Assembly (NCBI RefSeq): GCF_054482525.1
Contig: NZ_CM137006.1
Direction: 5' to 3' (one strand)
DNA length: 64,000 nucleotides
The notes under the pieces are model-generated. The model ran no database searches and was not told where the DNA came from. It saw only the letters and a list, made by a program, of their open reading frames with translations. The translations under genes and the position numbers were made by a program. Position 1 is the first letter of the stretch, and every line of letters starts with the position of its first letter. Below are positions 38,242 to 38,628 of this stretch, in pieces.

Positions 38242-38628
38242 TTAACGATACTTCTGGTGATAGGCGTTGCGGGTCGTTTTCAGTTGCTCTGCGGCAGCCT
38301 GCGCTTCTTTTACTTTACCTTCATTTGCCAGCTTCAGCGCGTCGTCAATCTGACCGACCAGAATATCGAAACCGTGGCGGAAGTCTTTCATTTCCGGGCT
38401 GTCCGGTGATTTGCCTTCGAGCTTCGGCGGCGTCGCTTTTTGCGCATCCAGCGCTGCGGCGCGCATCTTCGTTAACGCGTCTTTGACTTGCGCCGCGTTA
38501 TCGGCTTTTTCGACCACTTTTAAATTGTCGTTGAGGGTTTCCATATTGTCTTCAAGATCAGCGGCAAACGACGCCGAACTGAATACCAACGAGGAGACTG
38601 CAAGAATAGCTAACAGGCTTTTACGCAT
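38242..38628 (-). CDS. cybC: soluble cytochrome b562, full length with signal peptide
   Basis: 128 aa, [37 protein letters not shown]...; C-terminal ...RNAYHQKYR. Confidence 0.92.

Follow-up and report, generated by a model that had tools for sequence, protein, structure and literature searches.

The window that we analysed is a 64,000-nucleotide stretch of contig NZ_CM137006.1 from RefSeq assembly GCF_054482525.1. Around the locus of interest it carries nrdD (34767-36905, plus strand), nrdG (37063..37527, plus strand), a two-gene cassette of the relBE type, cybC, pmbA/tldE (38811..40163, minus strand) and yjgA (40257-40808, plus strand). We placed nrdG from its ORF and from the annotation of PCN033 and K-12, and it is convergent with the toxin gene of the cassette; pmbA/tldE, identified by ORF and annotation, shares the strand of cybC and lies upstream of it. 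E. coli PCN033 has a 100% identical region, in which the RefSeq CDS at this place is cybC (WP_001232246.1). Just past yjgA, an IS3-family element with two overlapping transposase ORFs extends from 40908 to about 42265. This element is annotated as IS1397 in the identical PCN033 region, and in K-12 mpl lies beside yjgA with no IS.

In the ORF list, cybC occupies 38242..38628 on the minus strand, with an ATG start and 387 nt that encode 128 aa and a stop. Its product matched the Pfam family PF07361 (Cytochrom_B562; E 5.8e-34, 117.2 bits against a cut-off of 30) over profile positions 1-102 of 102, and the NCBIfam equivalog NF011632 "cytochrome b562" (193.7 bits, cut-off 130) over positions 1-127 of 127. 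No gaps were needed to align residues 23-128 with the 106 residues of the PDB 1APC/1QPU/256B chain, and 104 of the 106 positions are identical. The only substitutions relative to the crystallised protein (256B) are I17V and D50G, both of which also occur in other natural alleles, e.g., that of Nissle 1917. The original prediction had described this ORF as a full-length 128-aa cytochrome b562 precursor with a signal peptide, and on this point the ORF list, PF07361, NF011632 and the PDB alignment agree. cybC is thus a real gene here and no chance ORF.

We read codons 1-22 (38563..38628, minus strand) as the signal peptide because the solved mature chains begin at residue 23. These residues appear to follow a Sec-type n/h/c layout, with a charged n-region (RK), a hydrophobic core and an SFA/A site, and cleavage is predicted before ADLEDN. 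Such a signal peptide would send the 128-aa CybC precursor to the periplasm. There, the 106-residue mature protein (38245..38562, minus strand, from the ungapped 256B alignment) would fold as a four-helix bundle and hold one non-covalent b-type haem via Met7 and His102. Both of these axial ligands (mature numbering) are kept in the window in the 256B/1APC alignment. In length and signal peptide the window CybC is the same as the soluble cytochrome b562 of E. coli (256B/1APC/1QPU), a model haem protein and the parent of the BRIL fusion partner.

Upstream of the start codon, AAGGAAG at 38636..38642 (minus strand) is a putative Shine-Dalgarno sequence, of which K-12 keeps AAGGAA. The gap between pmbA and cybC also holds an imperfect palindromic repeat of ~130 bp (38649..38787, minus strand), seen in alignments and by folding, which we take to resemble an ERIC/IRU repeat. 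Its predicted RNA fold has an energy of -59.3 kcal/mol and a z-score of -8.2. The element is present at this site in K-12 too and absent from it in VG888-46E9, and is hence polymorphic. Elsewhere it occurs as copies of ~70% identity at a median of 3 places per genome at the search sensitivity used; two such places are the rhlB-gppA interval and the vicinity of nudB. Only such ~70%-identity copies, in other places, were seen in about 1,547 genomes. A simple scan of 37400..38900, including the sequence upstream of cybC, found no sigma-70 consensus promoter. Right after the cybC stop lies a terminator-like hairpin (38209..38234, minus strand) formed by TTGGGCGGTGAAACGTTACCGCCCAA and a T-rich tail, to which the terminator scan assigned 11 pairs. 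This hairpin was found in all cassette-type loci and in the Escherichia outgroups, and not in K-12-type loci.

Between nrdG and cybC, the alignments and the genome census delimit a cassette-type segment of 705 bp (37528..38232). Both of its genes are on the minus strand. The upstream gene (37808..38050, 80 aa) encodes an antitoxin of the RelB/DinJ family, as shown by PF04221 (E 6e-16), by the NCBIfam equivalog NF008412 (130 bits, threshold passed) and by the PCN033 annotation. The downstream gene (37528..37818, 96 aa) encodes a RelE-family toxin, which matched PF05016 (E 6.6e-15, 55.9 bits, cut-off 23) and TIGR02385 (29.9 bits, cut-off 27.9). The two genes overlap by 11 nt, with the antitoxin gene immediately upstream, and form one operon. 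The TAG stop of nrdG and the TGA stop of the toxin gene, on opposite strands, touch with no spacer (37525..37530). Toxin residues 1-94 aligned without gaps to K-12 RelE (4V7K/4FXE), with 61 of 94 identical. K52, K54, R61, R81 and Y87, which we take from the RelE-ribosome structures to be the catalytic residues, are identical in the window toxin at all five positions of the alignment to 4V7K; 4FXE has an R81A mutation at the aligned position. An inverted-repeat scan further identified a TATAAT enclosed in a palindrome, TGTAATGCTATAATGCATTACA (38075..38096, minus strand), ahead of the antitoxin gene. By analogy with relBE operators, this is probably the autoregulated promoter/operator of the cassette.

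The cassette shares several features with K-12 RelBE (4V7J/4V7K, 4FXE), in which RelE is a ribosome-dependent mRNA endonuclease paired with RelB: in both, the toxin gene is preceded and overlapped by that of the antitoxin, and the likeness extends to the operator-like palindrome over the -10 region. The two differ in that K-12 RelBE is a paralogue at another chromosomal site. Another counterpart is the Salmonella relBE pair STM4449-STM4450, which lies in the same position and orientation against the 3' end of nrdG, with antitoxin and toxin 84-89% and 68-71% identical, respectively, to those of the window. STM4449-STM4450 has been listed as a relBE-type toxin-antitoxin (TA) module (PMC8708949), and also appears in PMC3868539, since retracted. 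Salmonella and Klebsiella have a PRD-domain regulator and sugar-utilisation genes after the antitoxin gene, whereas in Escherichia cybC follows directly. From the toxin alignment, the NF008412 match and the palindrome, the cassette looks like a working RelBE paralogue, whose toxin would be active.

We compared this arrangement with that of K-12 MG1655, in which cybC (b4236) lies at the same locus between pmbA/tldE and nrdG and shares the upstream ERIC-like element. RefSeq flags b4236 as a pseudogene (NC_000913.3 4459488..4459855) of 368 nt, compared to 387 nt in the window. Its product is 98% identical to the window protein over residues 8-128, with a C-terminus of NSYHKKYR rather than NAYHQKYR. 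Pairwise and 9-way alignments showed that K-12 lacks 26 bp, GTGAGCAATGCGTAAAAGCCTGTTAG, which correspond to 38610..38635 (minus strand) of the window. The deletion takes the start codon, the 7 nt that separate it from the Shine-Dalgarno sequence, and the 16 nt of coding sequence after it, which amount to 5 1/3 codons at the beginning of the signal peptide. Since 387 - 19 = 368, the RefSeq pseudogene begins at the deletion junction. The K-12 locus thus differs from the window at two places: it is without the 26 bp that include the start codon, and it is without the relBE cassette, having a 38-bp hairpin spacer instead. The original prediction, which described K-12 cybC as a truncated, N-terminally disrupted pseudogene, is supported by both the RefSeq flag and the 5' deletion, and a full-length K-12 gene in the same organisation is not what the alignment showed.

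To count the deletion we used a junction 54-mer in which any 28-base seed has to span the deletion junction, i.e., AAGGAA joined to CTATTCTT. The window, which has the 26 bp, does not contain this junction. Among the 5,426 complete E. coli genomes, 355 matched the 54-mer, each with 100% identity, and 60 of 60 sampled matches were K-12 laboratory derivatives, among them MG1655, W3110-type strains, DH5alpha, DH1, BW25113, C600, J53, MC4100, TG1, S17-1 and NCM3722. Longer queries agreed, with 354 genomes at ≥99% identity to the K-12 allele and 358 at 90-95% identity to that of the window. The 26-bp deletion is therefore private to the K-12 lineage. A full-length cybC was present in each of the outgroups examined; this, together with the small number of genomes that carry the deletion, supports intact cybC as the ancestral state; that the strain behind the window keeps this state, as had been predicted, fits these counts. 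A 1993 paper is said to have reported PCR cloning of cybC from B and K strains. Our literature search did not find an original description of the K-12 lesion, and the later papers give the pseudogene status only (PMC3349551, PMC6945024); the former describes cytochrome b562 as "of unknown function."

In the K-12 lineage alone, then, the deletion would block formation of a properly initiated, exportable precursor, which would account for the RefSeq pseudogene label. It could instead be argued that the label is an annotation convention and that K-12 cybC still works through translation restart at an internal in-frame codon. The entire mature domain is in frame with its haem ligands intact, and an ORF of 115 codons is left from a TTG at codon 14. 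However, the ATG is gone and CTATTC now comes right after the residual Shine-Dalgarno sequence, the TTG is not preceded by a purine-rich ribosome-binding sequence of this kind (GCAGTCTCCTCG), and a product started at codon 14 would have just 9 residues before the cleavage site and no charged n-region, so Sec export would be unlikely. Correctly exported CybC from the 115-codon ORF is accordingly unlikely. Further, MG1655 has less cybC mRNA than the B strain REL606 (PMC3446290), and the Keio cybC knockout serves as a neutral control (PMC6945024). We consider functional restart in K-12 extremely improbable, and retain loss of function through the 26-bp deletion as the preferred reading.

The original prediction had also set the K-12 lesion in relation to the toxin-antitoxin cassette. 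The alignments confirmed that the cassette adjoins intact cybC, but the implied link did not hold: the lesion affects the 5' end of cybC, on the pmbA side, and the cassette is found past the 3' end, about 370 bp away. We accordingly rejected the idea that the lesion was caused by, or is linked to, loss of the cassette, given the opposite ends of the gene and the 4,970 cassette-free genomes versus 355 with the deletion. The K-12 lesion and the absence of the cassette are unrelated events, and cassette absence is a much older allele, found in 92% of E. coli.

In K-12, 44 bp separate the cybC stop from the nrdG stop, and 38 bp of these (TCCCTGTTGCCTGCACTCAGGTAACAGGGAACTTATCA) form a hairpin; here the window has its 705-bp segment (37528..38232). 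Homology between the cassette and hairpin alleles resumes 9 nt past the cybC stop and, on the other side, at the last sense codon of nrdG, whose stop codon is TAG in the window and TGA in the hairpin allele, including K-12. The hairpin spacer was present in 4,970 of 5,426 complete E. coli genomes (92%). Some cassette sequence, always chromosomal, was present in 454 (about 8%), of which 391 hold ≥80% of the cassette. Since these two classes sum to 5,424 of 5,426, the nrdG-cybC site is essentially biallelic. We also asked whether the 38-bp spacer is a decayed remnant of the cassette, using as targets the window cassette and the spacers of E. albertii, E. whittamii, Citrobacter R56 and MOD1-EC7003. 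This was rejected, as local alignments were no better than those of shuffled sequences, 68-184 of 300 of which reached the observed score. An apparent match of the spacer to the 3' end of the antitoxin gene (CCTTGTTACGCACTGTCAGGGAAC) was taken as chance for the same reason.

We examined the age of the cassette by scanning for the CybC protein in one genome per species, which yielded 57 loci whose neighbours were identified by tblastn and whose spacers were read directly. The relB-relE pair or its remnants lie against the nrdG stop in the same orientation in a range of relatives. The toxin gene is frameshifted in E. whittamii and Citrobacter sp. NCU1; E. albertii has a frameshifted toxin gene and has lost most of the antitoxin gene; two further Escherichia species representatives keep the antitoxin alone; Citrobacter sp. 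R56 keeps just the 3' end of the toxin gene; and in S. enterica subsp. arizonae relB and relE are both intact. The order nrdG-relE-relB is also annotated in a record of S. Infantis, whose antitoxin bears the LT2 tag STM4449, and recurs, likewise oriented, in a 5.37-Mb K. pneumoniae record that is filed as a plasmid. Relative to the window antitoxin, identity declines from 96% (E. whittamii) through 84-91% (Salmonella and Citrobacter) to 80% (Klebsiella), in parallel with NrdG identities of 98%, 92-94% and 92%, respectively. The toxin is 62-71% identical to its positional orthologues, no higher than to the K-12 RelE paralogue (64%), so that orthology is argued from position and from the antitoxin rather than from toxin sequence. 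In all five non-coli Escherichia representatives, the left flank and terminator are of the cassette type and the K-12-type hairpin is absent. Cassette-free spacers also occur in some other genera, e.g., in Enterobacter sp. kpr-6.

Within E. coli alone, a cassette frequency of 8% would by parsimony favour the opposite polarity, in which the cassette is a recent, lineage-specific insertion and E. coli had the short K-12-type spacer to begin with. Mobility is general among TA modules, relBE paralogues of 60-73% identity are common on plasmids, and cassette sequence is found in only 454 of the 5,426 genomes compared to 4,970 with the hairpin. Insertion is nonetheless hard to reconcile with the same pair lying stop-to-stop with nrdG in Klebsiella, Salmonella, Citrobacter, E. 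albertii and E. whittamii, with antitoxin divergence that follows NrdG divergence, or with the distribution of flanks among the five non-coli Escherichia representatives. It would also leave several independent decay states that are derivable from a full cassette only, and the site shows no target-site duplications and no integrase. In the plasmid and phage collections, we found no cassette copy above 73% identity on true plasmids or phages. A plasmid origin was rejected since the plasmid collection gave one match at ≥99% identity, to a record of 4.9 Mb that can only be a chromosome, and otherwise matches of ≤73%, and a phage origin was rejected since the single match in the phage collection is a 501-kb Salmonella chromosomal contig. 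These misfiled matches are chromosomal and therefore give no evidence of mobility. We judge a recent insertion to be very unlikely. The simplest reading is instead that the cassette predates Escherichia, as suggested by its outgroup position, the parallel divergence of antitoxin and NrdG, the flanks and the lack of a mobile copy, and that the hairpin allele would be derived within E. coli. The relB-relE pair would then be an old chromosomal resident of the Enterobacteriaceae, stop-to-stop with nrdG, that survives in about 8% of E. coli; in the remaining strains, including K-12, the 38-bp hairpin spacer would have taken its place. The prediction that the cassette-bearing arrangement is ancestral agrees with this reading.

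The records concerned are NZ_CP134663.1 and CP125156.1 (4.9 and 5.37 Mb, filed as plasmids) and AFYI01000007.1 (the 501-kb Salmonella contig, filed as phage). Three "plasmid" places that match cybC may stem from misfiled chromosomes too.

Taken together, these data make it highly likely that the window holds an undamaged locus, that the cybC deletion is confined to K-12 and that the relBE cassette is an independent and old feature of the site. K-12 is then the exception: essentially all natural E. coli encode intact cytochrome b562 and the standard laboratory strain does not, and with cybC broken, K-12 is unusable for studying the physiological role of the protein. The K-12 pseudogene, intact cybC in other strains and the annotation of the TA genes are all in public records and already known. 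Our additions are modest: evidence from outgroups on how old the cassette is, and the decay series described below.

Several E. coli and related genomes hold the cassette in damaged form. Antitoxin-only alleles were found in O145 RM9872 (locus L003, 1997-2236), in IAI39 (L007, 2674-2913) and at loci L010 and L011. A deletion that runs from one 8-bp CTGGATGA repeat to another, repeats that exist because the antitoxin and the toxin both end in RLDE, has removed precisely the toxin gene here and left an orphan RelB of 79 aa against nrdG. The same junction is seen in distant lineages, and has therefore either recurred or spread by recombination. The toxin gene of E. coli E69 (L009) has a 2-bp frameshift. 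In MOD1-EC7003 (L012), a non-coli Escherichia, the whole cassette was cleanly lost between CGCAA repeats and the cassette-type flank was kept. Further independent decay was observed in SCPM-O-B-9504 (L004), E. albertii (L014), E. whittamii (L013), NCU1 (L040) and R56 (L044).

The alleles can be arranged as a series that runs from the intact module of the window through frameshifted toxins (E69, E. whittamii and NCU1) and orphan antitoxins (O145, IAI39 and two cryptic-clade genomes) to the double damage of E. albertii, the excision in MOD1-EC7003 and the 38-bp hairpin replacement in 92% of E. coli. We think it somewhat more probable than otherwise that the nrdG-abutting relBE is an ancient, vertically inherited TA module of the Enterobacteriaceae of which Escherichia shows every stage of decay. 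If so, the series would be natural material for asking how a chromosomal TA module can go without killing its host, and why one replacement allele has spread so widely. The cassette appears to be older than the species and to have disappeared repeatedly, and offers a modest example of chromosomal TA decay.

We note two further observations on cybC alleles. The gene was broken independently by the IS66-family element ISEc22 in at least one non-K-12 genome (NZ_OY754853.1; L066, 962-3810), and is therefore dispensable and occasionally lost outside K-12; listed beside this case is NZ_CP037943.1, in which the cybC match falls at two places in the record. The alleles also look mosaic. Those of the window and Nissle 1917 combine G50 with the C-terminus NAYHQKYR, those of K-12, O157:H7 and IAI39 combine D50 with NSYHKKYR, and the crystallised protein has D50 with NAYHQKYR.
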